From contig JADHWO010000002.1 of NCBI GenBank assembly GCA_016783445.1, forward strand, positions 25,464-89,463: DNA of 64,000 nt, written 5' to 3'. Shown here piece by piece: positions 16,023 to 63,744 of this stretch. Position numbers and translations under genes: made by a program. This DNA comes from Candidatus Aminicenantes bacterium (GTDB lineage: Bacteria > Acidobacteriota > Aminicenantia > Aminicenantales > Aminicenantaceae). Each line of letters begins with the position of its first letter. Positions within the stretch are counted from its first letter, which is position 1. Under the pieces are notes generated by a model. It was given only the letters and a program-made list of their open reading frames with translations. It was not told where the DNA came from and did no database searches.

Positions 16023-16036
16023 GATGGGGGTGCACT

Positions 16037-17952: not shown

Positions 17953-18152
17953 CGTAGGGATTTGATTAAATTGCAGGGATTTGATTCATCATACCCGTTA
18001 ATTCTGAATTTGTAGGAGCTTGATTTATCAAGCCCACTTTATTGTTTTGCAGGGATTTGATTCATCAAACCCGTTGATTTTTAAAAAAGGGAATTGGCCT
18101 CAATTTCTTTCTTTTTCTGTCATTGCAAGGAACGAAGTGACGCGGCAATCTC
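17953..18152. repeat. Cluster of four family-1 REP-like palindromes plus one family-2 unit
   Basis: The family-1 units are gtagggatttgattaaattgcaggg, atttgattcatcataccc, gtaggagcttgatttatcaagccc and gcagggatttgattcatcaaaccc. The family-2 unit is tcattgcaaggaacgaagtgacgcggcaatctc at 18119-18152. Confidence 0.6.
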
Positions 18153-18238
18153 TTATCAAAATCTAGGTATTTTTGTCGACTCAGTAGGGCAATAACTCAG
18201 ATAAATCTGTTATTATATATAAACTCAAGGAGGTAGAC

Positions 18239-31701: not shown

Positions 31702-32997
31702 ATGGTGTTGAAGAAAAAAGGCCTTGAAGGAAAAAGAATAAGTTGTGATGACTACACTTTAGTAGACTTCCTTGAATTTGAAAGTAACGACCTTTTTGAA
31801 GTGGCTGATTATTTCTGGGAATACATGTTAGATGCAGCAAGAAGAAAATATTTAGTCTACGGTCAACCCATGATGTCTGGCCCAAAAGCTGAATTTAAAG
31901 TTTATGACCGAAACACCAATTCAGTAAGAAAATTTTTAAATTTTTGTTCTTATAACTACCTCGGATATTCTTTTCATCCTGAAGTCGTTAAAGCTGTTCA
32001 GGCAACTATCAACGAATTTGGCACCGGGGCTGTGTCAGCACCACTGCTCAGCGGATATTCTAATCCGGTCAAGAAGTTAGAGGAAGAATTAGCTAAATTA
32101 AAAGGAAAAGAATCAGCAATAGTATTTTCAACAGGATATGTGACAAATTTGGGAATACTATCAGCGCTTTTAAAACCCGGTGATACTGCAGTCTTGGATA
32201 TTCTGTCTCATGCTTCTATATATGACGGGGTAAGGTTATCCGGGGCAGATATAAAAGTTTTTGCGCACAATAATCCTCAGCACCTGGATAAAGTTCTTAA
32301 TGGTTTAAAAACAAAAAGGAATATTGTTTGCGTGGAAGGTGTTTATAGTATGGATGGAGACCTGTCAAATCTTCCTGAAATAATCCCCGTTTGTAAAAAA
32401 CATAAAGCGAAGATATTAGTTGATGAGGCTCATGCCTCATTGGTCTTTGGGAAAAAAGGGGGAGGAGTGGCAGAACATTTTGGCCTTGAAGATGAAGTTG
32501 ATATTTCTATCGGTACGTTCAGTAAATCCTTCGGTGCTATTGGAGGGTATGCTGCAGCCAGTGAAAAGCTTATCGCTTTTTTCAGGTTTTTTACAAGGTC
32601 TTATATTTTTTCATGTGCTATGGCGCCTCACACCGCTGTTGGGATCCTCAAAGTCCTTGAAATTTTCAATAAAGATAAATCCAGAAAGGAAAAACTTTGG
32701 GAAAATACTCATTATATGCATGCCAAGTTAAAAGAAGCAGGGCTTGATATTGGAAGTACAAAATCTCAGGTGGTTCCTGTCATGGCTGGAAATGATTTAA
32801 GGCTGCGTGAAATAAGTAAGAGGATTCAAGAGAAAGGGTTGTACACGGGCGTAGTAACTTATCCAGCTGTATCAAAGAATAAAACCAGGCTGAGGCTATC
32901 AGTTTCTTCGATGCATACTAAAGAACAGATAGATAAATGTATTAGAATACTCGCAGAAGTTTTTGATAGTATGGCTGATTGGAAGCCGGGTCAATAA
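31702..32997 (+). CDS. PLP-dependent alpha-oxoamine synthase, serine palmitoyltransferase-like
   Basis: NFCSYNYLG is present, and the PLP-lysine motif is GTFSKSFGAIGGY. The protein is 431 aa. Confidence 0.8.
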   Translation: MVLKKKGLEGKRISCDDYTLVDFLEFESNDLFEVADYFWEYMLDAARRKYLVYGQPMMSGPKAEFKVYDRNTNSVRKFLNFCSYNYLGYSFHPEVVKAVQATINEFGTGAVSAPLLSGYSNPVKKLEEELAKLKGKESAIVFSTGYVTNLGILSALLKPGDTAVLDILSHASIYDGVRLSGADIKVFAHNNPQHLDKVLNGLKTKRNIVCVEGVYSMDGDLSNLPEIIPVCKKHKAKILVDEAHASLVFGKKGGGVAEHFGLEDEVDISIGTFSKSFGAIGGYAAASEKLIAFFRFFTRSYIFSCAMAPHTAVGILKVLEIFNKDKSRKEKLWENTHYMHAKLKEAGLDIGSTKSQVVPVMAGNDLRLREISKRIQEKGLYTGVVTYPAVSKNKTRLRLSVSSMHTKEQIDKCIRILAEVFDSMADWKPGQ

Positions 32998-36829: not shown

Positions 36830-37651
36830 ATGAAACAAAAAAATCTTCTTAGTATACTTTTATTTCTTTTAATAGCCCAATGCTATGTGGCTGTTGGCCA
36901 ATTCACTCCTGCTGAAATTGCTCAAAGGGAAAAGCTGGAGGAATTCCTCAAAACCGCAGAAATCATAAAATCAGAAGATATAGGAGAGGGAGTTACAAAA
37001 CCAATAAAGCTTACACTAAAGAAGGGAGATGTGGAAAGATATGGAGCATGGAAAAATCCCAAAGGCATTAAATCGGGCCAGCTTGAGGGCTGGCAGTATG
37101 AAATAGCTGCTTATGAGATGGATAAGCTTTTAGGATTAAACATGGTCCCACCCACAGTCGAGAGAGAGCTCCACGGATTGAGAGGGTCCCTTCAGCTCTG
37201 GGTCGAGTCTCAATTAAGCGATCTGGAACTAAGAGAAAAAGGAATGAGTATTCCTGATTCTGAGCTTTTACAGTGGTCAAAAATGAAGTATTTAGCAAGA
37301 GCATTTGACAGTTTAATTGCCAACGACGACCGGACCCAGCAGAATGTACGCTATACTAAGGATTGGCGGACGATTCTCATCGACCATTCCCGTTCTTTCC
37401 GCTCCTCCGGGAAGTTCATGAAGAGACTTGTTTTTGGAAAAAAAGGTATAAAGGGTGTCACGCTTATCAGGTACGTGCCCAGGGCTTTTATAGAAAAGGT
37501 TAAAGCCTTGAACTTTGATACCATAAGGAATGCTGTAGGTCCTTATTTGAAGGACAAAGAGATTGAAGCTGTTCTCAAGCGTAAAGAGCTTCTCCTTAAA
37601 GAGATCGAAGAAATGATAAAAGAATATGGAGAAAAAAAGGTTTTGTATTAA
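36830..37651 (+). CDS. Secreted protein with an atypical-kinase-like catalytic motif (HipA / PI3K / Fam20-like)
   Basis: There is a signal peptide. The sequences AFDSLIANDDRTQQNVRY and ILIDHSRSF resemble a kinase catalytic loop and metal-binding loop. Confidence 0.4.
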   Translation: MKQKNLLSILLFLLIAQCYVAVGQFTPAEIAQREKLEEFLKTAEIIKSEDIGEGVTKPIKLTLKKGDVERYGAWKNPKGIKSGQLEGWQYEIAAYEMDKLLGLNMVPPTVERELHGLRGSLQLWVESQLSDLELREKGMSIPDSELLQWSKMKYLARAFDSLIANDDRTQQNVRYTKDWRTILIDHSRSFRSSGKFMKRLVFGKKGIKGVTLIRYVPRAFIEKVKALNFDTIRNAVGPYLKDKEIEAVLKRKELLLKEIEEMIKEYGEKKVLY

Positions 37652-41159: not shown

Positions 41160-44100
41160 TTATTTTATTTCTTTGATTCTGATGTTGCGGAACTCCACAT
41201 GCGAGCCATGGCCGAGGAAACCAATGTGTCCCTTCTCCCGTTTGAGTCCTGGATGGTCTTTTCCATCTAGTGTAGTGGGTGTGCTGGCTTTATCGATATT
41301 TGCATCAACGATAGTTACACCGTTGAGATTGACGATGATTTTTCTGCCCCTGGCAATAACTTCCTCATAATTCCACTCGCCGACAGGTCTGAGATAACCG
41401 CGTTTGGCTGGAACAATACCGTATATGGAACCGTGATACTGGTATGGCTCTAGGTCTTTATAGATGTGAGCTGTATTGTCCAGGATTTGAAGTTCCATGC
41501 CTACATAGGCCGCATCTCCTGTCAGAGGAGCGCGAATCCCCAGCCCGTTGTTTGCACCGGAAGTAAGTTTAAACTCAAACCGCAGGATATAGTCACTGTA
41601 TTCCTTTTCTGTGTACAAATTCCCGCTTCCGCGTTTCGGATAAATAACGATTTTTCCATCTTCGGCAACATAGCCGGTTGTCTCACCGGTCCAACCTGTA
41701 AGATCCTTCCCATTAAATAACAGCTCAAAACCCTCGGCAGTTTCCTGCTCAGTCAGGCCCTGGGCTCCCTTCTCAGGGATAATCTCACGGATGAATATGT
41801 TACGGAAATAGAGCGGACTGTTATGTGATTGAAGTTCGATCTGGCCTGTCGGGTAGATCGGTTTATCCTGCTCCCAATAATTTTCCATTACTACATTATC
41901 TACCATCAGTACATCATTTAAGTAAACCGTAACCTTTTCACCTGTCATCTTGATTCGGAAAGTGTTCCATTCGCCAATAGGATTATCCACACATTTTAGC
42001 GGCTTACTCGGACCTTCTTTGTTATTGTACAGACCGCCGGAACCCTCAGGCCATTGTTCTGGATCCCAGATCTGCACTTGAGGCGACCCGCGGAGATAAA
42101 TGCCGCTGTCTCCACCCTTCTCAATTTTCCAATCAACAAGCATTTCGAAATCAGTGTAATCTTTTAAAGTACAGAGGCTCTCTCCTTTGCCGTCAAAAAC
42201 AAGTATCCCGTCTACAACCTTCCAGTGTTCACGCATCGATAGATCTGCCTCTTCCTGCGCTTTAGTCAATTCTTCCGGAGTCATTTTTGTTCGACTGATG
42301 GGATCACCGACAAGGCCTTTCCATCCGGAAAGATCTTTCCCGTTAAAAAGGGATACAAATCCTCCTTGCTCCAGAATGGCGCTGATATATTTCTCAATCC
42401 TTTCCTGTTCATAACTGTCTTCAATGAGCCCGACCGATTTTTTCAGCACAGATATCACTTCAGCTCCAAAGAGTCCTCTTGCTGTCCCGGGTTGGGGCAA
42501 TGCAATTTCTGCCACGGTTATGGCTGCTTGAGCCTGTAAATCCTGGTCACCAAGATAGGCTGCAACAAGCCTCAGTGAGTTTAGGATTTTTACACTGCCC
42601 AATCCCTTTAGAATATGATTTTTTTCTTCTGTTTCTGCTGCAATATCCAGGGCTTCTTTGAGTATGCTGAGCCTCCTTTCTGGAGTAAGTTCTGATTCTA
42701 TTACGAGCCTGACATAACCCTGAATAGCAAAAAGACGGTGTTCCTGTTTTTTTGTAGTGCTGTAAATATTAAACAATTCCTCTACAGCGCTAATGTCAGG
42801 CCACTCAGCCAGAGTGGAGACCGCCGCATCTTGAATAATTGGGTCTTCGGTTTTTGTCTCTTCTATTACGGTTTGAAGTGCGTTCTTTCCACCAATTTTT
42901 GCAAGAGGCCTCAGCAGATCAATCCGTTTTGTGTCAGTGGTTTCCTCCAGCGTTTCCAGTATCAGGTCAGCGCGCTTTTCCGGATCAATAATTAAATTTG
43001 CACTGGCCACCACAGCATTTTGAGCAAGCGATATTTCGGTGCTGTTTTGAGCTTCAAGAAGAATTTTTATTAAATGTGGCAGGTCTGTTTCACTTGCCAG
43101 ATTTTCAAGCCCGGCAAGAGCGGCAAGCCGGACTGATTCGTGATCACTATTTATTTGAGTAAAAACTGTATCTACATGTTCCTTTGCCAGCCGCTCAGAT
43201 AGGATTTCTATAAGAGCTACCTGAGCTAGTGGCGGCATTTCTTCCAAGATTTCGACCACACCAGGAACAACCTCGCTGCTTGGAAATCTTTTAAGAACTT
43301 GTTTTGTAGTATTAATTTCGTCCGCCTGATCTGTGTGCAAAGAGGTGAATAATTCAGGAAGAACATCACTTCCTCCAAGATGGGCCAAAGCTGGAATTGC
43401 TGCCAGCCGGATAATTTTTTCCTCACTCTTTAATGCCTGTAAAAGTGTAGGAAGTGCTGATATGTTTTTGCGGTACCCGAGCATTGTGATTATTTCTGCC
43501 TGAGTTTCTGTTGGAACCTCGGTCATTTTTTTTATCCATTGTGCGGTAGCGTATTCTCCTTGGAAAGTGCCGGCAAGTTCAATTGCTCTTGATCGAAGTT
43601 CTTTGTTTGGATTTTCCATGGAAGACAGGAGGTCTCCAAAAGCCCTCTCGCCTATAGCGTTTACCAGTATACTTAAAGCCAAACACGGGACATTGCTTTC
43701 ATGAGGGGATGTGTAGTTTTTTATCAGATTGCGGCAGATCCTTGCACACTGCTGCTTTTTCCCAGATTCAGCGAGACGCTGGGCGTATAATAAATAAAGT
43801 GAAGGAGCTTTTGATCTTTCGTAAGATGAGGAAGCTACTGAAATACTGTCTAATACCTTTTCAGACTTCGGATCGCCGATATTTGCCAGAGCGTATAAAG
43901 TTACGTGGCGCAGTTTTTCGTTTCTACTGGAAACATATCTGGTGATTTTTTTCACAGCTGCCTTACTGCGAAACTCACCAAGGGCTTTTATGATCGTGAT
44001 CCTGTTTGTTTCTGATACAGAGCGAAGGGATTTTAACAAAGCCTTCTCAGCCTCAGGTGTTCGGATGGCAAGCAGTGCCTGAGTTGCCGGTTCGCATAAC

Positions 44101-44549
44101 CTTTTGTCCTTGAGAAATATTCTTAGGGGTTTAACGGATTCGTTTTTACCGACAAGTTGAAGCTGACGGATTAAAAATGCTTTTACCTCACTATCTTTTT
44201 GTGACTCCAGAGCTTTCAAAAGAGTTCTGGCATAGATTCCTCGTTCCTGTTCAGCCCCAGCTCGGTGGGCATATACAGATAGTGCATTCAGTGCGAATCG
44301 GACCCTGGTGTCATCACCTGTTCCCGGCGGAACCAGCATGCGGCAAACCTCCTGAATTCCTTCCTGACCAAGTTGAATGAGTTCAGAGGCTAACTTATCT
44401 CTTTCAGCAGTGTTTTGAGCGGGAAATTTGGCAAGTGTATCAACAACTTTTGTCTTTGAAGTTCTTACATCTTCCTGTCCGATCACCAAAGATGAGGCTA
44501 ACAGCAATGCTGTTATCAAAATAAGTATTGTTTTTTTCTTGTTTTTCAT
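41160..44549 (-). CDS. Large secreted protein with N-terminal HEAT/ARM repeats and two C-terminal DUF1080 (3-keto-glycoside hydrolase-like) domains
   Basis: There is a signal peptide after the internal Met (MKNKKKTILIL). Two DUF1080 ends are present, YFRNIFIREI and EFRNIRIKEIK. No CxxCH motif is present. Confidence 0.7.
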   Translation of the reverse strand: MKNKKKTILILITALLLASSLVIGQEDVRTSKTKVVDTLAKFPAQNTAERDKLASELIQLGQEGIQEVCRMLVPPGTGDDTRVRFALNALSVYAHRAGAEQERGIYARTLLKALESQKDSEVKAFLIRQLQLVGKNESVKPLRIFLKDKRLCEPATQALLAIRTPEAEKALLKSLRSVSETNRITIIKALGEFRSKAAVKKITRYVSSRNEKLRHVTLYALANIGDPKSEKVLDSISVASSSYERSKAPSLYLLYAQRLAESGKKQQCARICRNLIKNYTSPHESNVPCLALSILVNAIGERAFGDLLSSMENPNKELRSRAIELAGTFQGEYATAQWIKKMTEVPTETQAEIITMLGYRKNISALPTLLQALKSEEKIIRLAAIPALAHLGGSDVLPELFTSLHTDQADEINTTKQVLKRFPSSEVVPGVVEILEEMPPLAQVALIEILSERLAKEHVDTVFTQINSDHESVRLAALAGLENLASETDLPHLIKILLEAQNSTEISLAQNAVVASANLIIDPEKRADLILETLEETTDTKRIDLLRPLAKIGGKNALQTVIEETKTEDPIIQDAAVSTLAEWPDISAVEELFNIYSTTKKQEHRLFAIQGYVRLVIESELTPERRLSILKEALDIAAETEEKNHILKGLGSVKILNSLRLVAAYLGDQDLQAQAAITVAEIALPQPGTARGLFGAEVISVLKKSVGLIEDSYEQERIEKYISAILEQGGFVSLFNGKDLSGWKGLVGDPISRTKMTPEELTKAQEEADLSMREHWKVVDGILVFDGKGESLCTLKDYTDFEMLVDWKIEKGGDSGIYLRGSPQVQIWDPEQWPEGSGGLYNNKEGPSKPLKCVDNPIGEWNTFRIKMTGEKVTVYLNDVLMVDNVVMENYWEQDKPIYPTGQIELQSHNSPLYFRNIFIREIIPEKGAQGLTEQETAEGFELLFNGKDLTGWTGETTGYVAEDGKIVIYPKRGSGNLYTEKEYSDYILRFEFKLTSGANNGLGIRAPLTGDAAYVGMELQILDNTAHIYKDLEPYQYHGSIYGIVPAKRGYLRPVGEWNYEEVIARGRKIIVNLNGVTIVDANIDKASTPTTLDGKDHPGLKREKGHIGFLGHGSHVEFRNIRIKEIK

Positions 44550-44577
44550 TTGAATATCTCCATGTAAAAAAGCTGCC

Positions 44578-45855
44578 TTATAGATGCCATGGTGCACGCA
44601 TGGGTTGAGCGATTAAACGGTTTGCCTCCACATCATTAATGAACCGCTGTTTGTCCGGGTCAAAATGAAGAGGTCTTCCCAATCGCACAGCAATTTTGCT
44701 CAGATTGACGATTGTACAGGAACGATGTCCATTTTCTTCATTTAAGGCAAACTTTTTTCGGGTTCTAACAGCCTTGATAAAGTCGGTCACCTGAGGTTCT
44801 GGGTCAGGAAGAGTAGCCAGTTTTTCTTTTAAATTGGGAATATCGGATTCAAGGCCTTTGAATAACTTTCCATCGGGCCCTTCGATGAACGCTGCATCTT
44901 TATCCTTGTTTTCGCCGTCAAGGATTATTTCACAGCCATCAGCATATTTTAATTGAATCCGGCGCCAGCTTCCACAAGCGTCAGGATGCTGCTGGGGACA
45001 GTCAGCTTCAATTTCGACCGGACTGGTGTCATCTTTGTCAAGAATATATTGAACCGGGTCAAGGTAATGCATACCCATGTCTCCAAGTCCGCCGCCATCA
45101 TAATCCCAGTATCCACGGAATGTGCCGTGAACTCGATGCTTGTTATAAGGTTTATAGGGAGCAGGACCGAGCCAGAAATCATAATCCAGTTCTTTAGGAA
45201 CAGGTTCGGGTTTTAAATTTGTTTCTCCGCTCCAGTAAAATTTCCAGTCAAAACCGGTTATGCCGCTGACCGTAACTTTTAAAGGCCAGCCCAATATGCC
45301 GCTCTGGACCAGTTTTTTTATTGGCTTGACAGTAGTGTCAAAACCGTAGAACTGATCTCTAAATCTGAACCAGGTATTCAGCCTGAAAATTCTTCCATTC
45401 TTCTGCACAGCTTCCACAATTTTTTGTCCTTCGCCGATTGTTCTTGTCATAGGTTTTTCACACCAGATGTCCTTGCCTGCTTCTGCTGCAGCAACGGCGA
45501 TGAGTGCGTGCCAGTGTGGGGGGGTTGGGATATGGACAATGTCAATATCAGACCGCTCAAGGACTTCACGAAAATCCTTATAGCCTGCAACTCCGGGCCC
45601 GGCAATTTTTTGTGCCATGTTTAAATGTTTTTCATCAACATCACATACTGCCAGAAGTTTAGCCCCCGGATAATGAAGGTGCACCCGTCCCATACCGCCT
45701 ACGCCAATTACAGCTTTTGTAAGCTGGTCGCTGGGTGCTGTGTAGCCTGCGCCTCCCAGAACGTAACGTGGCACTATTGTGAGGGCAGCAGTGGCAGATA
45801 TTGTATGCTTAATAAAATCCCTTCGGGTTATTTGTTTTTTTCTTGTCATATCCAT
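44578..45855 (-). CDS. Tat-exported Gfo/Idh/MocA-family oxidoreductase
   Basis: The Tat motif is TRRDFIKHT. The Rossmann segment is KAVIGVGGMG. It is in an operon with the HEAT-DUF1080 gene. Confidence 0.85.
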   Translation of the reverse strand: MDMTRKKQITRRDFIKHTISATAALTIVPRYVLGGAGYTAPSDQLTKAVIGVGGMGRVHLHYPGAKLLAVCDVDEKHLNMAQKIAGPGVAGYKDFREVLERSDIDIVHIPTPPHWHALIAVAAAEAGKDIWCEKPMTRTIGEGQKIVEAVQKNGRIFRLNTWFRFRDQFYGFDTTVKPIKKLVQSGILGWPLKVTVSGITGFDWKFYWSGETNLKPEPVPKELDYDFWLGPAPYKPYNKHRVHGTFRGYWDYDGGGLGDMGMHYLDPVQYILDKDDTSPVEIEADCPQQHPDACGSWRRIQLKYADGCEIILDGENKDKDAAFIEGPDGKLFKGLESDIPNLKEKLATLPDPEPQVTDFIKAVRTRKKFALNEENGHRSCTIVNLSKIAVRLGRPLHFDPDKQRFINDVEANRLIAQPMRAPWHL

Positions 45856-52945: not shown

Positions 52946-53324
52946 TAAGTGGGTCAGGCCTTAAAAACTCTAATAACTTGGATTTTTGTTACTTGTTTTT
53001 TTTGACATAATATTTTTCCCCATGAATATTAAAATTCTAAAAATTTTAAAGGTCTTTCCCCTATAATTCTAGAGAATTTCAATTTGACTATTTTCTTTTT
53101 AATGAATATCTTATTAGCCAAAAGGAAAAAAGAGGAAGGATTTCATGAGTCATTCTAAAAAAGCAACAAAACAATCCTGTCAAATTAAGCGCAGGGAGTT
53201 TTGTAAAAGGGTTCCCTGTGTTGCAGTTAGCGCAATATTTTCAACCAGCTTGATGGGGATGGCTTTTAAGGGAGATAAAACAACCCCATCTTCAAAGGAA
53301 TCAAACTATAAAAAGGAGGAGATT

Positions 53325-53600
53325 ATGGCCAAAAAAATAACAGCAGTCACAGCAAAAGTTATTAGCCAGAAAGGAACCTGTGCCATGGGGCATAAGATTG
53401 GTCATAAGGTTAAGTTTACTGAATCTGGAATTGAAGGAAAAATCTGTATTCACGCACTATACAGCATGCTTCCAGGAGTTTTTGCAATGATGTATGAATC
53501 TCGGTTTCCGTGGCTCAAAGATCCGGATAAAAAAACGCATGCCTGTCCGGATGCATATAATCCTGTTGTATTTGAAATTGAAAGGATTAGAGAAAAATAG
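53325..53600 (+). CDS. Small TIGR04076-like protein (about 91 aa)
   Basis: The pattern is C..GH..G..F...IC..A.....W.KD....CPD..NPVVFEIERI. A strong RBS (aaggagg) lies 7 nt before ATG 53325. The ORF track starts at 53145 with a Tat-like N-extension (RREFCK). Confidence 0.5.
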   Translation: MAKKITAVTAKVISQKGTCAMGHKIGHKVKFTESGIEGKICIHALYSMLPGVFAMMYESRFPWLKDPDKKTHACPDAYNPVVFEIERIREK

Positions 53601-53678
53601 AATAGGGTTACTGCATGGCACAGCCTGTAGTCAAAATTTGCCTGAACAAACAAGCTTTATTTCACGAGGAGGTAAGAG

Positions 53679-56003
53679 GTGATGGAACATATTGAGAAGT
53701 TTTTAGGAGAATTGCCGTTATTTAAAAAATTTTCCCAGTCAGAGCTGAAAAGGCTTGTCGGAAAAAGCCATGTAAAAACTTTTGCCCCAAAGGAAGTGAT
53801 TATCCAATTCGGACAACCGGGAAGATTCCTTGGAATTGTCCTTGAAGGTGAAGCCGAGGCTGTGATTACCAGTAAAACGGGTAACCGGATACGGCTTGGA
53901 CTTATTGAACAAGGTAATTTCCTTGGTGAGATGTCACTGCTAACCGGCGAACCCACCAGCGCAGATGTTATCGCCTTAAAAAAATGTGAGATCTTTCTTA
54001 TCCCCCAGAAGATTTTTTCAACTATTGTTGCTGTTAATCCCGAGGCTGTAAGGATACTTGCAAAGACCATAACTGACAGGCTAAAAAGCCGCCAGCAGAA
54101 TGAGGAAGAACAGACGCGTGTAAAAAATGCCTGGCGGAGCGTGCCGGATCCTTATGGACTCAGTTTGTCTCCTGATACTCCCAAGAAAATGCTGGTCATA
54201 AACTGCGGCAGTTCCTCATTAAAATTTAGTTATTTTGATACGGCTCATGAGACAAATAATCTTGAAGGGATAGTTGAGAACATTGGCCTGGAGAATTCTG
54301 CTATTCACTCTTCGTCGGAAAAAGGTGAAGTTAACAAAGAACTGGGCAGCATTGGCTATAAAGAGGCATTTCAGACTGTTGTTGAGCTGCTAACTGATTC
54401 CAAAGATGGCGTGATTTCCGATCTTAACGAGCTTAGCGCAGTGGGCCACCGTGTTGTTCATGGTGGTGATAAGTACGGAAGTGCAGTGATTATCGATAAA
54501 GAAGTGATTAAAGACATAAATAAATATTCGAGTCTGGCACCGCTCCATAATCCTCCAAACCTGATGGCTATCCAGGAGAGTATTAATCTTATGCCAGAGG
54601 TGCCGCAGGTGGCTGTTTTTGATACGGGTTTCCATCAGAAGATGCCCAGACATGCTTATCTCTACGGGCTTCCGTATGAGTATTATGAGAAAGACCACAT
54701 CCGCAGGTACGGTTTCCATGGTATTTCTCATAATTATGTTGCTCTTCAGGCTGCTGCTTATTTAAAGCTCAATTTCCGGGAATTGAAGATTATTACCTGT
54801 CACCTGGGGAATGGTGCTTCTATCTGTGCTATTGATCACGGAAGGTCAGTGGACACTAGTATGGGGCTGACACCCCTGGAGGGACTAATCATGGGCACCA
54901 GGTGCGGGGATATCGACCCTTCAACAATTTTACACATTTGCAGGGAAAAAGGATTATCTGTTGAGGAAGTTGATGGCATTTTGAACCGCCAGAGTGGCCT
55001 TAAAGGGCTTTCCGGGATATCCAGTGATTTACGGAAGATTGAAGAAGAAGCCAGTAAAGGAAACCAAAGGGCTTTACTTGCTCTTGACGTTTTTGGTTAC
55101 AGGATCCGGAAGTATATAGGCTCATACATAGCTGCCATAGGTGAGTTGGATGTACTTGTCTTTACTGGAGGAATTGGCGAGGGGAGCGCCTGGGTCAGAA
55201 GCCTGGCATGCCAGGGGCTGTCTCATATGGGAATACGGATGGATAACATACTGAATAAAACGGTATCACCAGGACCTGGAGAAGTAGGGGATATCTCGGA
55301 TGAACTTTCTGAGGTGAAAATCCTGGTTATTCCTACTAATGAAGGAAGAATGATTGCCCGGGAGACGATCCACACCCTTCGATACCAGGATGTGACTCAC
55401 GTGATTAAAAGTCAAAAAGAGAAGAGGTTTCCGATTGAAGTATCGGCCCACCATATCCATTTAGCAACAAGTGAAATTGAATCGCTTTTCGGGGCAGGAA
55501 GTAAACTGACTCTTCGGTCAGACCTATCCCAGCCGGGCCAGTTTGCCTGCGAAGAAACAGTTAATCTTGCAGGGCCCAAGGGCCGGGTAGAGCGGGTAAG
55601 GGTTCTGGGTCCTGAACGGAAAGAGAGCCAGGTTGAGATATCCATGACAGAAGAATTTAAACTGGGTATAAAAGCTCCGATCCGTGCCTCCGGTGATCTG
55701 GAGGGCAGTCCTGGAATCACACTTGAAGGCTCAAAGGGTACGTGCGACGTACCCAAGGGAGTTATCTGCTCATTTCGTCATATTCACATGGCTCCGGAAG
55801 ATGCCCTTTCTTTTGGCCTGAAGGACCGCGATATTGTCCAGGTAAGGGTTGAAGGGGAAAGGACATTGATTTTTGGAGATGTCCTTGTACGTGTTCATCC
55901 TGATTTTCGGCTTAGTATGCATATCGATACAGATGAGGCCAATGCAGCTAATATCACAACAGGAATGGAAGGAACTCTTGTTGGTGTCCAGGACCGCAGA
56001 TGA
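53679..56003 (+). CDS. Tri-domain fusion: cNMP-binding domain + acetate kinase + PduL-type phosphate acyltransferase
   Basis: The cNMP motifs are FLGEMSLLTGEPTSADV. The AckA motifs are VINCGSSSLKF, GHRVVHGG, FDTGFHQKMP, CHLGNGASICAI and VFTGGIGE. The PduL double repeat is SAHHIHL and SFRHIHMAPEDA. Confidence 0.85.
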   Translation: MMEHIEKFLGELPLFKKFSQSELKRLVGKSHVKTFAPKEVIIQFGQPGRFLGIVLEGEAEAVITSKTGNRIRLGLIEQGNFLGEMSLLTGEPTSADVIALKKCEIFLIPQKIFSTIVAVNPEAVRILAKTITDRLKSRQQNEEEQTRVKNAWRSVPDPYGLSLSPDTPKKMLVINCGSSSLKFSYFDTAHETNNLEGIVENIGLENSAIHSSSEKGEVNKELGSIGYKEAFQTVVELLTDSKDGVISDLNELSAVGHRVVHGGDKYGSAVIIDKEVIKDINKYSSLAPLHNPPNLMAIQESINLMPEVPQVAVFDTGFHQKMPRHAYLYGLPYEYYEKDHIRRYGFHGISHNYVALQAAAYLKLNFRELKIITCHLGNGASICAIDHGRSVDTSMGLTPLEGLIMGTRCGDIDPSTILHICREKGLSVEEVDGILNRQSGLKGLSGISSDLRKIEEEASKGNQRALLALDVFGYRIRKYIGSYIAAIGELDVLVFTGGIGEGSAWVRSLACQGLSHMGIRMDNILNKTVSPGPGEVGDISDELSEVKILVIPTNEGRMIARETIHTLRYQDVTHVIKSQKEKRFPIEVSAHHIHLATSEIESLFGAGSKLTLRSDLSQPGQFACEETVNLAGPKGRVERVRVLGPERKESQVEISMTEEFKLGIKAPIRASGDLEGSPGITLEGSKGTCDVPKGVICSFRHIHMAPEDALSFGLKDRDIVQVRVEGERTLIFGDVLVRVHPDFRLSMHIDTDEANAANITTGMEGTLVGVQDRR

Positions 56004-57800: not shown

Positions 57801-58310
57801 ATGAAACCATTCTTAAAAAAACTCCTCAGCATTTTACTTATAGTCTTTATAGCTGTGGCTTTTGCTGTTTTGGGATTCTATTTTAACAAATATGGCTTGG
57901 ATTTTTTAAAGCGCACAAAGTTGGTAGAGCAGATTCCTTTTGGGGAAGTAATTGAGATCACGGGATTTGAAGAAAAAGAGTTCTATAATTCAAAAAATGA
58001 ATTTATCGGAGCTGAAATAAGGATTAAAGTTAGATTTGCCTCAAAGTTAGAACCAGTTGAAAAATTACCTTCAGAATATAAACGAGGAATAGAAAAGGCT
58101 TACAGCAACGTAGTTATAATCGTGAAAGAGATTCCCAGCAAGGAATTACTGGACAAAATGAAAGAAGCATTGGAAGGCAGCGAGTTTCTAAAATTAATCG
58201 ATAGCGCTGAAGTCCAGGTTAGTTATATTGAAACAAAAATTGATAAAAAAAGAGTAAAAAGTATAGAAGAGATATTCGTGAAACCAGAGAGTTATTACTT
58301 TATAAAATAG
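57801..58310 (+). CDS. Hypothetical membrane-anchored protein
   Basis: There is an N-terminal TM segment. No other motif was found. Confidence 0.4.
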   Translation: MKPFLKKLLSILLIVFIAVAFAVLGFYFNKYGLDFLKRTKLVEQIPFGEVIEITGFEEKEFYNSKNEFIGAEIRIKVRFASKLEPVEKLPSEYKRGIEKAYSNVVIIVKEIPSKELLDKMKEALEGSEFLKLIDSAEVQVSYIETKIDKKRVKSIEEIFVKPESYYFIK

Positions 58311-58477: not shown

Positions 58478-60064
58478 ATGAGTAATAAGACAAAAAGATC
58501 TTCTGGAAAAAGCTCGTTTTTCAGGGAGAGAGATATATTTAAGATAAAGGCTGTTTGGATTATTGTGATTTTACTCCTAGTTGGTTTTGTATTTGGAAGC
58601 ATGGGAGTTCCGGAAGAAGGAAAAGACTTAAAAATTGCTGTAGCTATGTTTTCCCACGAGACATGCACTTTCTGTCCCAGGCCAACTACTATAAAAGACT
58701 GGGAATACTACGGTCCACCCACCCGTGATATTCTCGGTTTAGACAGAGGATACATCGGTGGCTTTAAAAACATGTGTGAGGAGTATGGAGGTATAAAGCT
58801 TGTTGGTATCCTTTCTCCCCGCGGAGCCCGGGGTGGTTCTTCAGGAAGCTGGATTACAAAGGAAGCCTTTGATAAGTACACAACCCTTATTGCCGGAGAC
58901 CTCAAACAGGCTGGCCCTTTTGATGGCGTTTTTCTTTCTCTTCATGGTGCCATGGCTGTGACAGGAGTGCCTAAACCTGAGGCTGAGATAGTCCGACGGG
59001 TACGCAAGGTAGTTGGGGATATCCCGATTATGGTTTCGCTTGACCTCCATGCCAACGAAGACCATGAACTCTCTGATGCTGCGGATGCGGTCTTCATCAT
59101 CAAGAGATATCCTCACTATGATACAAATCTAATAGGGGAATATGCAGGGAGAGTCATGATCAAGACTATCCGTGGTAAGTATAAACCAACCATGGCAACT
59201 CGAAAACCCGGTGTCATTACCCCTAGTGTTTTTCAGGGAACAGGAGTTTCCCCGGCTATGGACATCATGGAGAGAGCCCGGAGATGGGAGTGTCAGTATA
59301 GTGATGTCTATGTCTCGGTAGCGTTTGGTTTTGCTTATGCGGATGTACCGGATGTTGGAGCAACTGTAATGGTGGTTACCAATAATAATCAGGGGCTTGC
59401 AGACATGATTGCTGATGATATGTCCGGTTATATCTGGAGAGTAAGAAAAGAATTTGCAGGAAAAAAGCTGCCCAAAACAAAAAAAGGAGTGGCCTTGGCC
59501 ATCGGAGCTGCCAGAGCTGGAAAGACGCCTGTTGTCATTGCTGACCACAGCGACAGGACAGGCGGTTCCACGTATATCCTTGAGGAACTTATAAGACAGG
59601 GAGCTGAGAATTTCTGTATAGCCACTCTGCGCGATGAGAAAGCTCTTGAAGAGATTAAGGCTAAGGTAAAAGTAGGGGACACAATCAGCATCGATTTAGG
59701 TGGATATTCAGACAAATTTGCGGGAAATCCCGTCAGGATAAATGGTAAAGTTGAGTTTCTTGGTAATTATGGCAGAGGGACAGTGGCTGTGCTTGTATTC
59801 GGGAAAAACAACAGGGTCATCCTTACTCCACAGCTCATGCAGGTTACAACTCCTCGTATTTTTAGGCCTCTTGGTATTAAACTTGAGAGCCTGGATATAA
59901 TCGTACTCAAGTCCCGTGTCCATTTCAGGAGAGGATTCCATGAGACCGGACTGGCAGGAGCAATATTCGAAGTTGATGCACCTGGCTGGGGTCCTGCTGA
60001 CCTGACTCTACTTCCTTATAAAAATATCCCCAAAGATATCTATCCGATATATAAAAAAAATTGA
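58478..60064 (+). CDS. M81-family metallopeptidase (MlrC/microcystinase-like, DUF1485 + MlrC_C), membrane-anchored
   Basis: KIAVAMFSHETCTFCP is typical of the DUF1485 start. The protein is 528 aa. Confidence 0.75.
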   Translation: MSNKTKRSSGKSSFFRERDIFKIKAVWIIVILLLVGFVFGSMGVPEEGKDLKIAVAMFSHETCTFCPRPTTIKDWEYYGPPTRDILGLDRGYIGGFKNMCEEYGGIKLVGILSPRGARGGSSGSWITKEAFDKYTTLIAGDLKQAGPFDGVFLSLHGAMAVTGVPKPEAEIVRRVRKVVGDIPIMVSLDLHANEDHELSDAADAVFIIKRYPHYDTNLIGEYAGRVMIKTIRGKYKPTMATRKPGVITPSVFQGTGVSPAMDIMERARRWECQYSDVYVSVAFGFAYADVPDVGATVMVVTNNNQGLADMIADDMSGYIWRVRKEFAGKKLPKTKKGVALAIGAARAGKTPVVIADHSDRTGGSTYILEELIRQGAENFCIATLRDEKALEEIKAKVKVGDTISIDLGGYSDKFAGNPVRINGKVEFLGNYGRGTVAVLVFGKNNRVILTPQLMQVTTPRIFRPLGIKLESLDIIVLKSRVHFRRGFHETGLAGAIFEVDAPGWGPADLTLLPYKNIPKDIYPIYKKN

Positions 60065-60127
60065 CATCTAAAACTTCTTTTTTCCTTTTGACTTAAATAT
60101 TATCCTGCAATATAAAATAAAGATACT

Positions 60128-60273
60128 GAGGGCTTGATAAATCAAGCCTCTACATGAAAGAATAATATGAGATTGCTGTGTTTCGCTTGTAAAAACAAAA
60201 CAAATTGTGAGATTGCCACGCTTCGCTCGCAACAGGCTATGTAATCTCATTGCGAGCGAAGCGTGGCAATCTT
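60128..60273. repeat. One family-1 palindrome plus a perfect 24-bp inverted repeat of family 2 that forms a long hairpin
   Basis: The palindrome is gagggcttgataaatcaagcctctac. The inverted repeat is gagattgccacgcttcgctcgcaa (60209-60232) and ttgcgagcgaagcgtggcaatctt (60250-60273). Confidence 0.6.
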
Positions 60274-60315
60274 CTTCGCTCTTCGTTATGACATTAAATT
60301 TTTAAGGAGGTAAAG

Positions 60316-61848
60316 ATGACAGGAAAAGTATTTAAAAAGAGTATTCTCTATGGTTTGGTTATTGCCATCCTGGTTTTGAACCTGGGCATACAGTCGTTTG
60401 CCGCCAAGAAAATACCAAAAGAAAAAAAGCTTGTTCTTGAGTGGCTGAGTCAGTCACAGGTGGTTGAAAAGTTTGGTAAGATCTCGGATGCAATATGGTC
60501 ATACGCTGAGCTCGGGCTGCAGGAATTTAGATCGTCTAAACTCCTGGCAGACACATTGGAAGAAGCCGGATTTAAAGTTGAACGTGGTCTGGCCGGAATG
60601 CCTACCTGTTTTGTGGCTACCTATGGTTCAGGGAAGCCGTTGATAGGGATTCTGGGCGAGTACGATGCTCTTCCCATGCTTTCACAGAAAGGACGAGTTC
60701 CCAAACAGGACCCTGTTCTCAAAGGTGCTCCCGGACACGGTTGCGGCCACAACACTATGTGTACTGCAGCTGCGGCTGCGGCTATTGCCGTAAAACAGGC
60801 TATGGATAAGTATGGATTTGAAGGGACCATAAAAGTCTTTGGCTCGCCGGCTGAAGAAACACTTATAAGCAGGCCTTACATGATAAGAGCCGGGCTTTTT
60901 GATGATGTGGATGCTGTAATCGACAATCACAGCAGCAGTGGATTCGGGACCAGTTACGGCAGGGGAGGGAACGCAATGTTCTCCACTGTTTTCTCTTTTA
61001 AAGGTAAAACCTCTCATGGTGCATCACCCTGGGGAGGCCGCAGTGCCCTCGATGCAGTAGAGATAATGAACGTTGCTACGAATTTTCTCCGAGAACATCT
61101 CTTTTTTACTTACCGTATGCATTATGTAATTCCCGAAGGGGGAGAGGCTCCCAATGTAGTGCCTGACAGGGCCAGCGTATGGTACTTTATCAGAAACAGT
61201 GATGAAAGATTACAGGAGATGTATAGCAAGGTTATTAATTGTGCAAAAGCCGGAGCCCTGGCAACAGGGACGGAATTGAGCATCCGGTGTCTTTCTGCAA
61301 TACACCAGCGTTACGCTAATAAAGCTGCTGCAGAGCTTTTTCAGAAGAACATTGAGCTGGTTGGTATGCCGGAATGGACAGAAGAAGAGCACGCTTTTGC
61401 TAAGTCACTACAGAAAGAACTAGGCAGTCCAGAAAGAGGGATGCCAGCAAGGGTGGGCACGCTGAGAGATCGCCCCCGGACATTTGTAGGAGGCGGATCC
61501 TCTGATGTAGGAGATGTCAGTCTTATCGCTCCAACAGCAACTATCAGGTTCCCGGGACAGGTTCCAGGTGCTATCGGCCATCACTGGTCTTCTGTTGCTA
61601 GCAACTACGGCTCAACAGCCTGGAAAGGGCTCAATGCCGGAGCTAAAGCCATGGCTGCATCAGCTATTGACCTTTTCACCATGCCAAAAGAACTTAAGAA
61701 GCTGCGTGATGAGTTTGAAGCGCAAGCCAAAAAGTTTCCTTATAAACCATTCTTACCTGAAGATGCTGAGCCGCCCCTTGACCTGAACGAGGAATTGATG
61801 AAGAAATGGCGCCAGCTTATGGAGAAATTTTACATCGAGCATAAATAG
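60316..61848 (+). CDS. Secreted M20D-family amidohydrolase (AbgB-like)
   Basis: There is a signal peptide. The GHGCGHN metal-binding motif is present, and the protein is 510 aa. Confidence 0.8.
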   Translation: MTGKVFKKSILYGLVIAILVLNLGIQSFAAKKIPKEKKLVLEWLSQSQVVEKFGKISDAIWSYAELGLQEFRSSKLLADTLEEAGFKVERGLAGMPTCFVATYGSGKPLIGILGEYDALPMLSQKGRVPKQDPVLKGAPGHGCGHNTMCTAAAAAAIAVKQAMDKYGFEGTIKVFGSPAEETLISRPYMIRAGLFDDVDAVIDNHSSSGFGTSYGRGGNAMFSTVFSFKGKTSHGASPWGGRSALDAVEIMNVATNFLREHLFFTYRMHYVIPEGGEAPNVVPDRASVWYFIRNSDERLQEMYSKVINCAKAGALATGTELSIRCLSAIHQRYANKAAAELFQKNIELVGMPEWTEEEHAFAKSLQKELGSPERGMPARVGTLRDRPRTFVGGGSSDVGDVSLIAPTATIRFPGQVPGAIGHHWSSVASNYGSTAWKGLNAGAKAMAASAIDLFTMPKELKKLRDEFEAQAKKFPYKPFLPEDAEPPLDLNEELMKKWRQLMEKFYIEHK

Positions 61849-61866
61849 GGGAGAAGGAGGGTCAAA

Positions 61867-63744
61867 ATGTTTTCTTATAAAAGAATAATACTTAAAGAAT
61901 ACAAGGTCGTTCTTCTACTGTTTATTTTTATCTTTGCTGTAAACAGTTCCAGCACTGGCCGGACTGAGAAGCCAGTGCTTCACGGAAAACACTGGGTCGC
62001 CATCACAGGCAAACCTCTTGCCGCCACTGCCGGAGCCATGATTTTTCAGCGGGGCGGGAATGCCGTAGATGCAGCCTGTGCCATGCTTGGAGCAACATGT
62101 ACTATGTGGGATGTTTTGGGCTGGGGTGGTGAAACCCAGGCGCTGATCTATAATCCCCTTACAAAAAAGGTTATTGGTATAAACGCGCTCGGAGCTGCTC
62201 CCACTGGCGCCACTCCTGAATTCTTCAAGGAAAAAGAGATGGAATATCCACCTTCTTACGGCCCGCTTGCTGCTGTGACTCCTGGGACTCCAGGAGGTCT
62301 GATGACCATGCTGGCTGAGTACGGAACTATGAGCCTTAAAGACGTGCTTGAGCCTTCTAAACAAATGGCAGAAGGCTATCCTGCTGAGGAGGAATTTACT
62401 AGAAGGGTAGAAAGGTCAAAAGACAGGATCAAAAAGTGGCCATATTCCAAGAAAATTTTGCTGCCTCATCTGGGAAAAAAGCACGAGGCTCCTCATCCAG
62501 GGGAGGTCTTTCGACAGCCGGACTTGCTGGAAACTCTGAGGAAACTGGTCGAAGCTGAGCAACAGGCGCTGGATGAAGGAAAAAGCCGTAAAGAAGCTAT
62601 CTATGCAGCTTATGACCGGTTCTATAAGGGGGATATTGCTGAAGAATATACCCGCAGCTGTCAGGAACAGGGGGGGATCATGACCATGGAAGACCTGGCT
62701 AACTGGGAGCTCCATATTGAAGAGCCGGTCAAAACAACCTACAAAGGAATCGAGGTCTACAAGCTGACTTGCTGGGTACAAGGACCTGTTCTTTTGCAGA
62801 TGCTGAATATGCTGGAAAATGTCGATTTAAAATCAATGGGCTTCAATAGCGTGAATTATATTCACACCCTCTACCAAGTGATGAACCTTGCTTATGCTGA
62901 CAGGGATTTCTACTATGGAGACCCTTATTTTCCACCTGAGGAGCCGATAAAAGGATTGCTGTCCAAAGAATACGCGAAAGAACGGTTCAAAAAGATTAAC
63001 TGGAACCTGAATGACCCTGATGTTAAACCTGGAGATCCTTATCCCTTTGAAGGGAAGAAAAATCCTTACCTTCATCTTTTAAAGGAGTGGTCTAATGTGG
63101 GTAAAAAAGATCCAGGCAGGATGAGCGATGCAGAAATTGTAGCTTTTGAAAAAAACTTTACAGCCGGAACTACTTCCATCCAGGCAGCAGATAAGAATGG
63201 CTGGGTTGTTTCTGTAACACCCAGCGGTGGTTGGATTCCAGCTTGTATTGCCGGTAAAACTGGCATTGGGATGAGCCAGCGCATGCAGAGCTTTGTCCTT
63301 GAAGAGGGCAAGAATCCCTTCAATGTTGTCGCTCCTGGAAAGAGACCCCGGGCGACTTTAACACCGAGTATTGCTTTAAAGGATGGCAAGCCTTTCCTCT
63401 CTTTTGCTGTCCAGGGGGGAGATACACAAGATCAGAACTGTTTGCAGTTCTTTTTGAATGTTGTTGAGTTCGGTATGAATGTACAGGAAGCCTGCGAGGC
63501 GCCCAATATTGTGAGCTATCAGATGCAGAGTTCTTTTGGAGAACACATTGCTACTCCGGGCAGGCTTACTCTTAATGAAGCAGTTCCCAAAAAAGTTAGG
63601 CAACTCCTTACAGATATGGGGTACAGGTTAAGATATAGCAAGTATACATCAGGTCCCCTAAATGCAATCTTTTTTGACTGGAAACACCGTACTTTCTGGG
63701 GAGGTTCCAGTAACTATGGCGAAGACTACGGAATCGCCTGGTAG
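61867..63744 (+). CDS. ggt: Gamma-glutamyltransferase
   Basis: The autoprocessing site is FTAGTTS (catalytic Thr). The C-terminal small-subunit motifs GGDTQDQ are present. Confidence 0.85.
   Translation: MFSYKRIILKEYKVVLLLFIFIFAVNSSSTGRTEKPVLHGKHWVAITGKPLAATAGAMIFQRGGNAVDAACAMLGATCTMWDVLGWGGETQALIYNPLTKKVIGINALGAAPTGATPEFFKEKEMEYPPSYGPLAAVTPGTPGGLMTMLAEYGTMSLKDVLEPSKQMAEGYPAEEEFTRRVERSKDRIKKWPYSKKILLPHLGKKHEAPHPGEVFRQPDLLETLRKLVEAEQQALDEGKSRKEAIYAAYDRFYKGDIAEEYTRSCQEQGGIMTMEDLANWELHIEEPVKTTYKGIEVYKLTCWVQGPVLLQMLNMLENVDLKSMGFNSVNYIHTLYQVMNLAYADRDFYYGDPYFPPEEPIKGLLSKEYAKERFKKINWNLNDPDVKPGDPYPFEGKKNPYLHLLKEWSNVGKKDPGRMSDAEIVAFEKNFTAGTTSIQAADKNGWVVSVTPSGGWIPACIAGKTGIGMSQRMQSFVLEEGKNPFNVVAPGKRPRATLTPSIALKDGKPFLSFAVQGGDTQDQNCLQFFLNVVEFGMNVQEACEAPNIVSYQMQSSFGEHIATPGRLTLNEAVPKKVRQLLTDMGYRLRYSKYTSGPLNAIFFDWKHRTFWGGSSNYGEDYGIAW

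Follow-up and report, generated by a model that had tools for sequence, protein, structure and literature searches.

Within the 64-kb window examined here (the whole stretch of DNA that was analysed, 64,000 nucleotides of contig JADHWO010000002.1 from a Candidatus Aminicenantes bacterium), a single gene encodes a protein of 773 amino acids (aa) in which a sensor of the cyclic-nucleotide-binding (CNB) fold, an acetate kinase (Ack) and a PduL-type phosphotransacylase follow one another on the same polypeptide. At the level that sequence analysis allows, the enzyme part of this fusion is secure: it is predicted to be a cytosolic phosphotransacetylase-acetate kinase, carrying the phosphotransacetylase (Pta)-Ack pathway on one chain. 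That this enzyme is placed under allosteric control via its CNB domain, which is non-canonical, and that this control is linked to cyclic AMP (cAMP), is in our judgement an evenly balanced proposition. The catalytic residues of both enzymes are intact, the cassette of the sensor departs from the canonical pattern, the segment that couples sensor to kinase is ordered in the structural model, and in relatives a cyclase gene is linked to the gene for the fusion. Residue numbers used below refer to the 773-aa product that starts at the ATG at position 53682; the features of the gene are as follows.

53668..53673 (+): Shine-Dalgarno-like AGGAGG, read from the sequence, 8 nucleotides upstream of the ATG at 53682
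53682..56003 (+): whole gene for the 773-aa CNB-Ack-PduL protein, with stop codon; alternative GTG start at 53679
53682..54095 (+): CNB-fold sensor (PF00027), residues 1-138, with a beta-barrel (30-108) and an alphaC lid helix (120-138) carrying the conserved R133
53919..53975 (+): non-canonical equivalent of the phosphate-binding cassette, FLGEMSLLTGEPTSADVIA, residues 80-98, with Thr92 for Arg209, Asp95 for Thr212 and Ser85 for Ala202
54096..54185 (+): coupler, residues 139-168, with a helix (141-153) and the conserved D156-P-Y-G-L160 motif (nucleotides 54147-54161)
54186..55376 (+): acetate kinase domain, residues 169-565, matching PF00871 over its full length
55377..55430 (+): Ack-PduL connector, residues 566-583, continuing the C-terminal helix of Ack (554-577) in the AlphaFold2 (AF2) model; not an encapsulation peptide
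55431..56000 (+): PduL-type phosphotransacylase domain, residues 584-773, matching PF06130 over its full length

The enzyme module and the integrity of its gene

An open reading frame (ORF) scan of the window returned one uninterrupted frame at 53679..56003 (+), which would yield 774 aa from its GTG codon. The initial annotation had taken these outer positions for the gene, and the frame is real; the start, on the other hand, more likely lies one codon further on, at the ATG at 53682, because the resulting 773 aa are the length of nearly all homologs and because this start is used in public gene calls (NCBI, Logan). Pfam recognizes three non-overlapping domains in the 773-aa protein, namely cNMP_binding (PF00027; residues 33-117, 1.3e-18, 67.2 bits against a cutoff of 27.5), Acetate_kinase (PF00871; residues 170-561, 7.5e-147, 489.5 bits against a cutoff of 22, profile positions 1-392 of 392) and PTAC/PduL (PF06130; residues 585-759, 2e-75, 252.9 bits against a cutoff of 25, profile positions 1-175 of 176), and NCBIfam agrees with this assignment. 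The earlier claim that all three domains are complete and in frame is thus borne out, and the seven diagnostic strings on which it drew are located where expected, including the cores of VINCGSSSLKF, FDTGFHQKMP, HLGNGASICAI, VFTGGIGE and SFRHIHMAPEDA.

The exact protein is deposited as GenBank MBC8357980.1, from a Candidatus Aminicenantes metagenome-assembled genome (MAG), under the label "acetate/propionate family kinase", and the identical sequence was found on 8 contigs from several sources. A frameshift or an assembly join between the domains, which the initial annotation had named as a possible flaw, was looked for and not found: the reading frame is continuous, and at least 120 independent clusters carry the same domains. 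A repaired frameshift, a chimeric assembly and a mis-called gene are refuted by the recurrence of the same architecture and length in these clusters, which come from independent assemblies and include two closed genomes of approximately 4.4 Mb, CP070825.1 and CP070750.1.

The Ack domain matches TIGR00016 with 487.2 bits (cutoff 293.4). In Foldseek comparisons it is approximately 48-49% identical to the Ack structures of M. thermophila and T. maritima, with template modelling (TM) scores of 0.82-0.84, and phmmer aligns it to M. thermophila Ack (1g99) at 4.8e-123 and to the T. maritima enzyme at 1.3e-124. In the alignment to 1g99 the domain has N174, R257, D314, H346, R407 and E554, none of which varies among 121 homologs; we take them to be the equivalents of the M. 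thermophila catalytic residues N7, R91, D148, H180, R241 and E384. The nucleotide-binding motifs PHOSPHATE-1 (VINCGSSSLKF), PHOSPHATE-2 (HLGNGAS) and ADENOSINE (FTGGIGEGS) are likewise present, the sole deviation being a clade-conserved replacement of N335 by glycine (Gly501). In the acetate pocket, V259, L288, F345 and P398 are identical to V93, L122, F179 and P232 of M. thermophila, with valine kept in 118 of the 121 homologs. The position of Val93 is Ala88 in the propionate kinase TdcD (PDB 4xh4, 4xh5), and since valine occupies it here, acetate is the predicted substrate of the Ack domain. This acetate-type pocket also led us to reject a reading of the protein as a propionyl-CoA enzyme; the NCBIfam propionate kinase and EutD models match more weakly and stay below their cutoffs.

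The PduL domain matches NF011652 with 256 bits (cutoff 209). PduL proteins are characterized by two PF06130 repeats, and their active site comprises the zinc ligands H48, H50, E109, H157, H159 and H204 together with the phosphate contacts R103 and S127 (PMC4784909). In the fusion protein the family match is one full-length span of the profile, in which the two repeats are not separately resolved, and the domain resembles R. palustris PduL (5cuo) both in sequence (1e-46) and in fold (Foldseek TM 0.90, root-mean-square deviation 1.9 Å). The zinc ligands H591, H593, E652, H700, H702 and H747 and the phosphate contacts R646 and S670 are all invariant in the 121 homologs, and five of the six contacts to coenzyme A (CoA), which are S45, K70, R97, L99, H204 and N211 in PduL, are kept, K70 being replaced by Ser613. 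From the intact catalytic residues we infer phosphotransacetylase and acetate kinase activities. This upholds the earlier proposal that both enzymes are complete and that PduL followed by Ack provides a route from acyl-CoA via acyl-phosphate to the acid and ATP.

The connector between the two enzymes is the least conserved segment of the protein (0.51 mean identity). Searches of the 64-kb window by tblastn with BMC-H and BMC-P probes returned no shell gene of a bacterial microcompartment (BMC), and no paralog of any of the three fusion domains was found in it. Association with a microcompartment was therefore rejected, as no shell homolog occurs in the window and the PduL domain is internal and preceded by the C-terminal helix of Ack, so that it has no N-terminal encapsulation peptide.

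The sensor, the coupler and a cyclase linked to the fusion in relatives

Sequence matches of the sensor in the Protein Data Bank are to PKG, PKA-R, MlotiK1 and CRP, and AF2 models the region as a beta-barrel followed by alphaB and alphaC helices, with predicted local distance difference test (pLDDT) values of 84-97. Used alone as a Foldseek query, the sensor model retrieved PKA-R, Clr, GlxR and CAP at E-values of approximately 1e-10; trypanosome PKA-R structures rank first, statistically tied with cAMP-bound Clr, GlxR and CAP. The cassette F80-LGEMSLLTGEPTSADVIA-98 aligns with the canonical GE..L....PR[ST]A[ST] cassettes of solved CNB domains. Canonical cassettes follow the pattern FGE[LIV]AL..[PV]R[ANQV] and are defined by Arg209, and non-canonical cassettes accompany other ligands such as heme and chlorophenolacetate (Kannan et al., PMC2246266). 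In none of the 30 CNB families of the same survey is acetate kinase the output (Kannan et al., PMC2246266).

Purifying selection acts on the CNB domain as a whole (0.69 mean identity), and no part of the domain is more conserved than the cassette. Within the close family, G82, E83, L86, T88, G89, E90 and P91 are invariant and S85, L87, T92, A94, D95 and V96 are conserved in at least 90% of the sequences; the invariant residues include those at the ribose-contact positions (G82 and E83, corresponding to G199-E200), to which G47, at the position of Gly169 between beta2 and beta3, can be added. Ser85, at the position of Ala202, is conserved in 120 of 121 homologs. The pocket is therefore under selection and not decaying. 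On the alphaC lid helix, Arg133 is present in 121 of 121 members of the close family and, across phyla, in 37 of 42 sequences, 35 of which 42 have a basic residue at position 128 (Lys128); these are the only strongly conserved basic residues in the CNB domain, and they could compensate for the lost arginine of the cassette.

Between sensor and kinase lies the coupler, whose DPYGL motif is near-invariant in the close family, recognizable in most phyla and absent from Ack-PduL proteins that have no CNB domain. Immediately after it comes the first strand of the kinase (169-175), the one with the PHOSPHATE-1 motif. The full-length AlphaFold model has a mean pLDDT of 84.3 and a predicted TM score (pTM) of 0.83, and within it the coupler reaches pLDDT 83-88. 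When residues 1-168 were folded alone, the CNB core kept its values (83-97) and the coupler segment fell to 64, 53 and 40. As the coupler is ordered only when Ack is present, the linker is predicted to dock on the enzyme body and not in the CNB pocket, and the model argues for the coupler as a rigid transmission element by which the sensor lid would act on the kinase. In a Foldseek search with the full-length model, no chain of the Protein Data Bank spans two of the domains of the fusion. An intrinsic ligand of the KCNH type, in which DPYGL would fill the CNB pocket, was considered and found unsupported, in a test that is itself weak: the linker drops from pLDDT 83-88 to 40-64 without Ack, and no KCNH protein is among the top 50 fold matches.

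The gene neighbourhoods of relatives are the indirect evidence that bears on cAMP as the ligand. Among homologs of at least 70% identity, annotated with Pfam, a gene for an FHA-GAF-Guanylate_cyc protein of 560-593 aa adjoins the fusion gene in 11 of 13 independent contexts (L001, L002, L083, L086/L087, L088, L089, L090, L091, L092, L093 and L094). Four arrangements occur. In the first, a flavoprotein-like gene, a gene for a small CNB protein, the cyclase and the fusion follow one another on one strand, with 3 bp (L088) or 74 bp (L093) between cyclase and fusion; an example of this module lies at L088:6587-9997. The second consists of cyclase and then fusion, 66 bp apart (L089). In the third, the fusion comes first and is followed by the flavoprotein-like gene, the small CNB gene and the cyclase on one strand (L086, L090, L094), and in the fourth the genes are convergent (L001, L002, L083, L091, L092). 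In L086 and L090, a GAF-GGDEF gene additionally lies upstream in divergent orientation, and genes for Ser/Thr kinases are close by.

The linked cyclase has a complete catalytic set (metal and transition-state residues) and the Lys/Thr specificity pair found in class IIIb adenylate cyclases. Its best solved relative is P. aeruginosa CyaB (3r5g; 1.9e-39), which has the same Lys/Thr pair, whereas the guanylate cyclase Cya2 has Glu/Gly. Likeness to CyaB thus covers the catalytic domain and the specificity pair; the linked cyclase differs by its N-terminal FHA and GAF domains. Judged by these residues, its predicted product is cAMP.

With 121-124 aa, the small CNB protein keeps the arginine in a cassette of canonical type, FGEMAIFE..[RK]SA[TN]VRA. 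Of the 11 cyclase-linked contexts, 9 include its gene, which is not adjacent in L089 and L091; the start of this gene overlaps the stop of the flavoprotein-like gene (451-475 aa), which indicates translational coupling. The flavoprotein-like product, which carries CNMCGG and CxC motifs, is distantly related, with a below-cutoff match, to flavoproteins of the geranylgeranyl-reductase type. One reading is that a single adenylate cyclase serves two outputs, each with a CNB module, which acts in trans for the flavoprotein and is fused for Ack-PduL. Because the linkage survives rearrangement and two contexts involve the cyclase alone, we consider it good evidence that the fusion protein belongs to a cAMP circuit.

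Several observations weigh against cAMP-linked control. The position of Arg209 is threonine in 120 of 121 close homologs, and in 18 deep representatives and 28 genome homologs from all phyla it is never arginine (T, I, V, A, S, G or L instead). All 28 genome homologs, and 37 of the 42 sequences of a wider set, have an acidic residue at the position of Thr212, where an Asp or Glu should disfavour an anionic phosphate. Since Arg209 is absent and the cassette holds an acidic residue, binding of cAMP or cyclic GMP is not to be assumed. In trypanosomatid PKA-R, where the arginine is replaced by Thr318 or Asn442 and Ala202 by a glutamate that contacts the 3' and 5' hydroxyls of the ribose, nucleosides are bound and not cAMP (Ober et al., PMC10959531); trypanosomatids are so far the only organisms for which a PKA CNB domain unresponsive to cyclic nucleotides is reported (PMC10959531). 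As to the linkage, L085 and the window's own locus are without the cyclase, no copy of the cyclase module was found anywhere in the window, and the loci from distant phyla show no cyclase linkage. Finally, the arginine-bearing small CNB protein is a candidate for the actual cAMP receptor. The initial annotation had proposed that substrate-level phosphorylation is put under direct second-messenger control, and this holds in part: a predicted adenylate cyclase adjoins the gene in 11 of 13 close-homolog contexts, sometimes in an operon-like manner, but the sensor itself is without Arg209 and has an acidic cassette residue, and no cyclase is found at the window's own locus.

Proposed mechanism, competing explanations and known systems

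The mechanism that we infer, together with the identity of its ligand and the direction and sign of the regulation, would run as follows. The C-terminal PduL domain, with its putative two-zinc active site, would convert acetyl-CoA and phosphate to acetyl-phosphate and CoA, and the central Ack domain would then convert acetyl-phosphate and ADP to acetate and ATP, both reactions being reversible. Fusion would set the two activities at 1:1 and may limit the escape of reactive acetyl-phosphate. The N-terminal CNB-fold domain would act as the allosteric regulator: from the alphaC lid a movement driven by the ligand could pass through the coupler (helix 141-153 and DPYGL) to the first kinase strand with its PHOSPHATE-1 motif and so gate the kinase. 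In the clade of the window gene, the signal would most likely be the product of the linked FHA-GAF class IIIb cyclase, predicted to be cAMP. Ligand binding would have to be non-canonical, because the cassette has threonine for arginine and holds an aspartate, and might proceed via the lid residues Arg133 and Lys128. The fusion may be the first known case of a second messenger or metabolite that directly gates the module from acetyl-CoA via acetyl-phosphate to ATP at the protein level, through a bacterial CNB domain devoid of the arginine; it would use either a new mode of cAMP binding, for example via Arg133 and Lys128 of the lid, or a switch of ligand as in trypanosome PKA. We put this larger claim forward tentatively, as possible but on balance doubtful.

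The best surviving alternative, which we judge unlikely without treating it lightly, is that the CNB domain senses a non-cyclic ligand, such as a nucleoside or a metabolite derived from a nucleotide or CoA, and that the cyclase neighbourhood reflects co-regulation or control via the small CNB protein. The family-wide replacement of Arg209 and the acidic Thr212 position speak for it, as do the heme- and chlorophenolacetate-binding precedents among non-canonical cassettes (PMC2246266). Site A of TbPKAR, with the same change of arginine to threonine, binds inosine, guanosine and adenosine (PMC10959531), and trypanosome PKA-R structures are the top Foldseek matches of the isolated domain, though tied with cAMP-bound CRP-type proteins. 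Rhodocyclales homologs are without the ribose-binding glutamate (E83), and the cyclase linkage is confined to one clade. The comparison with trypanosomatid PKA-R has two sides: the cassette arginine is replaced by threonine (T318 in TbPKAR) or asparagine there as well, but the change of Ala202 to Glu and an extra alphaD helix are trypanosomatid features, the fusion family has Ser85 and an aspartate at the Thr212 position instead, and organism, output and context differ. Against a non-cyclic ligand there is also the tight linkage to a predicted adenylate cyclase, which survives rearrangement and extends to L089 and L091, where the small CNB gene is not adjacent; and the sequence yields no candidate for such a ligand.

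Quite unlikely, in our estimate, is a CNB domain that binds no small molecule and serves in dimerization, scaffolding or autoinhibition, or that pairs with the small canonical CNB protein as the real cAMP receptor. C-helices of CNB domains mediate dimerization in CRP-type proteins, and the key phosphate ligand is lost here; the small canonical CNB gene accompanies 9 of the 11 cyclase-linked contexts, and in the model (pTM 0.83) the domain is rigidly packed on the enzyme. The pocket-lining cassette, however, is the most conserved part of the domain, which argues for a retained binding site, and the intrinsic-ligand variant found no support in the linker (pLDDT drop without Ack) or in the top 50 fold matches (no KCNH). 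Translational coupling to the flavoprotein gene, moreover, suggests that the small CNB protein serves the flavoprotein instead.

The layout of cyclase plus CNB proteins also invites comparison with Pycsar anti-phage systems, in which the fusion would be a metabolic effector: PADLOC PycC models match the cyclase at 98 bits, and the CNB part of PycTIR models matches both CNB domains. These are fold-level matches, below those to Pfam Guanylate_cyc (128 bits) and CyaB (139 bits); no TIR or transmembrane effector is present, the cyclase has FHA and GAF sensors and the adenylate-type Lys/Thr pair, no mobile-element context surrounds the gene, and the fusion is a fully intact enzyme of housekeeping type, conserved in its clade and in many phyla, with most loci lacking the cyclase. 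We therefore disfavour such a system as very improbable. An artefact of frameshift repair, chimerism or gene calling, which is refuted, or a microcompartment-associated propionyl-CoA enzyme is scarcely credible, given that below-cutoff propionate kinase and EutD matches and otherwise prior caution only can be set against at least 120 clusters of the same architecture and length, the lack of a BMC shell homolog, the internal position of PduL and the acetate-type pocket.

The Pta-Ack pathway is the main fermentative route to ATP; it is also where acetyl-phosphate, a global donor of acetyl and phosphoryl groups, comes from. As far as is known, the pathway is controlled mostly at transcription or through the regulatory region of E. 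coli-type Pta, which lies at the N-terminus and is unrelated to the CNB domain. Stand-alone PduL proteins outside microcompartments serve as phosphotransacetylases in place of Pta, for example in Moorella and phytoplasmas. With the classical Pta-AckA system the fusion shares both reactions and the kinase family, but it places both steps on one polypeptide, in the order Ack then PduL, and adds a dedicated sensor. Erbilgin et al. (2016, PLoS Biol, PMC4784909) proposed that multidomain Ack-PduL proteins take the place of Pta in the Pta-Ack pathway and might assist substrate channeling. Like the fusion, they have the PduL signature without encapsulation peptide, joined to an acetate kinase; they figure there in one passing remark without characterization, and the N-terminal CNB domain, its cassette and the cyclase neighbourhood are unmentioned.

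A precedent for a CNB domain fused to a metabolic enzyme that uses acetyl-CoA is the mycobacterial Pat (Rv0998/MSMEG_5458), in which the ligand of the N-terminal CNB domain relieves autoinhibition; Pat ties acetate and acyl-CoA metabolism to cAMP (PMC8556138). Against the CNB part of the fusion the NCBIfam Pat model gives a weak match; the two proteins differ in that Pat has a GNAT acetyltransferase acting on proteins as its output and a CNB domain proven to bind cAMP, whereas the fusion has Ack-PduL and a cassette without the arginine.

Should the proposed control hold, the fusion would be evidence of bacteria that use a signalling domain to regulate substrate-level phosphorylation post-translationally, and Ser/Thr-kinase and cAMP signalling would be coupled to substrate-level phosphorylation and the supply of acetyl-phosphate. 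The fusion would also be a natural system in which to probe acetyl-phosphate channeling, and its cassette, devoid of the arginine and strongly conserved all the same, is a tractable case for a change of ligand or binding mode in CNB domains. For annotation, the label "acetate/propionate family kinase" hides the phosphotransacetylase part, and metabolic reconstructions of Aminicenantes and other MAGs may wrongly call Pta missing.

Distribution of the family and genomic neighbourhood

Among 5.8 billion clustered proteins, at least 120 clusters matched at 70-99% identity; every one has the same three Pfam domains, and nearly all are of 773 aa. Homologs occur in at least 10 phylum-level groups. 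In a taxonomic scan of one genome per species, the three-domain protein turned up in many groups, among them Aminicenantes, a Deltaproteobacteria MAG, Smithellaceae, Bacteroidota (Draconibacterium, Prolixibacteraceae), Verrucomicrobiota, Planctomycetota, Magnetobacteriaceae, Myxococcota, Anaerolineales and Rhodocyclales, the last including the isolates Azoarcus sp. L1K30, Dechloromonas sp. ZS-1 and Azonexus hydrophilus ZS02. MAGs of Polyangiaceae, Spirochaetes and Rhodobacteraceae encode Ack-PduL proteins with two domains. When 1.84 billion representatives at 50% identity were searched exhaustively with HMMER, approximately 13 full-length three-domain representatives emerged, together with several Ack-PduL proteins and a few of CNB-Ack composition that have no PduL. 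The neighbour-joining tree of the Ack domain is star-like and unresolved, and was not used to settle a single versus a repeated origin of the fusion.

The initial annotation had not recognized the architecture as described. In this form the statement needs correction, as the architecture is abundant across many phyla, is deposited under a generic name and had its Ack-PduL part noted by Erbilgin et al. (2016; PMC4784909); what stands is that no description or characterization of the sensor-bearing form was found in the literature. Targeted full-text searches, which did not cover all journals, returned no account of the three-domain protein, nor of its cassette or the neighbouring cyclase, and the architecture is not listed in the survey of CNB families (PMC2246266). 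The fusion is thus real, widespread, uncharacterized and mechanistically interesting, without being categorically new.

Several distant homologs are without intact Ack nucleotide-binding motifs. In the three-domain homologs of Rhodocyclales (L009, L010, L012, L014-L018, L023), all 9 PduL catalytic residues that were checked are kept and the nucleotide motifs of Ack are altered: PHOSPHATE-1 reads LNVG[IL][ST]QIHF, N211 is changed to I or V, the glycine of ADENOSINE to Asp, E384 to Asp and R285 to His. Three of the Rhodocyclales organisms with altered Ack motifs are cultured isolates. A Phycisphaerae/Anaerolineales/Planctomycetota clade (L021, L024, L026, L035, L050, P0126) likewise keeps the 9 PduL residues and has altered nucleotide motifs, with N7 changed to Ser and R91 to Cys in addition. 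The Pfam match stays full length in both clades, whose residue changes suggest that the domain may be a pseudo-kinase or may use another phosphoryl partner; by the same residues the window protein, unlike these, is of the fully canonical kinase type. Three proteins of 570-580 aa (P0140, P0143, P0150) are of the CNB-Ack type without a PduL domain, and have all 13 Ack catalytic residues intact.

In the window itself, the neighbours of the fusion gene encode a TRAP transporter, LpxR, a PD-(D/E)XK nuclease, a TIGR04076 protein, a peptidyl-prolyl isomerase (PPIase) and an M81 peptidase, all unrelated to the fusion. No neighbour of the fusion gene is shared across phyla; clustering of the ORFs of 27 loci gave only generic receiver and histidine-kinase domains. 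The nearest upstream feature is:

53145..53600 (+): TIGR04076-family ORF (62 bits), separated by 81 bp from the fusion gene downstream; the two may be co-transcribed, and the neighbour is not conserved

The TIGR04076 protein has an N-terminal extension of approximately 65 residues, with an RREF motif and a hydrophobic stretch, that resembles a signal or Tat sequence. Rfam returned no riboswitch or other RNA element in the window, promoter and terminator scans stayed at background level, and no mobile-element context was found around the fusion gene.

Farther away, the window is dense in peptidase genes (13884-20494 and 58478-63744), which encode two M14 carboxypeptidases and DPP-IV/S9, M81/MlrC, M20 and gamma-glutamyltranspeptidase enzymes, and it also holds an amino-acid permease (25821-27221) and an aminotransferase (31702-32997). 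Richness in peptidases and amino-acid uptake is consistent with an organism that ferments peptides and with a lifestyle of peptide and amino-acid degradation. Three AcrB-type RND pump genes lie at 423-3494, 5388-8489 and 8486-11632, the third followed by an HlyD-type adaptor (11629-12909); among them is a DDE transposase gene (DDE_Tnp_1_6, DUF772, DDE_Tnp_1) at 3631-5115 (+), which is probably an insertion sequence. Between 30064 and 45855, genes for GFO/IDH/MocA oxidoreductases, a xylose-isomerase-like TIM-barrel protein and 3-keto-disaccharide-hydrolase (PF06439) proteins are clustered, including one for a 1145-aa protein (41160-44597) with HEAT repeats and two PF06439 stretches. Four ORFs have no Pfam match: 20642-22531 (-), 629 aa; 27407-28009 (+), 200 aa; 36830-37651 (+), 273 aa; and 57801-58310 (+), 169 aa. 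An unannotated 169-aa ORF is also found after the fusion gene in L088 and L093.

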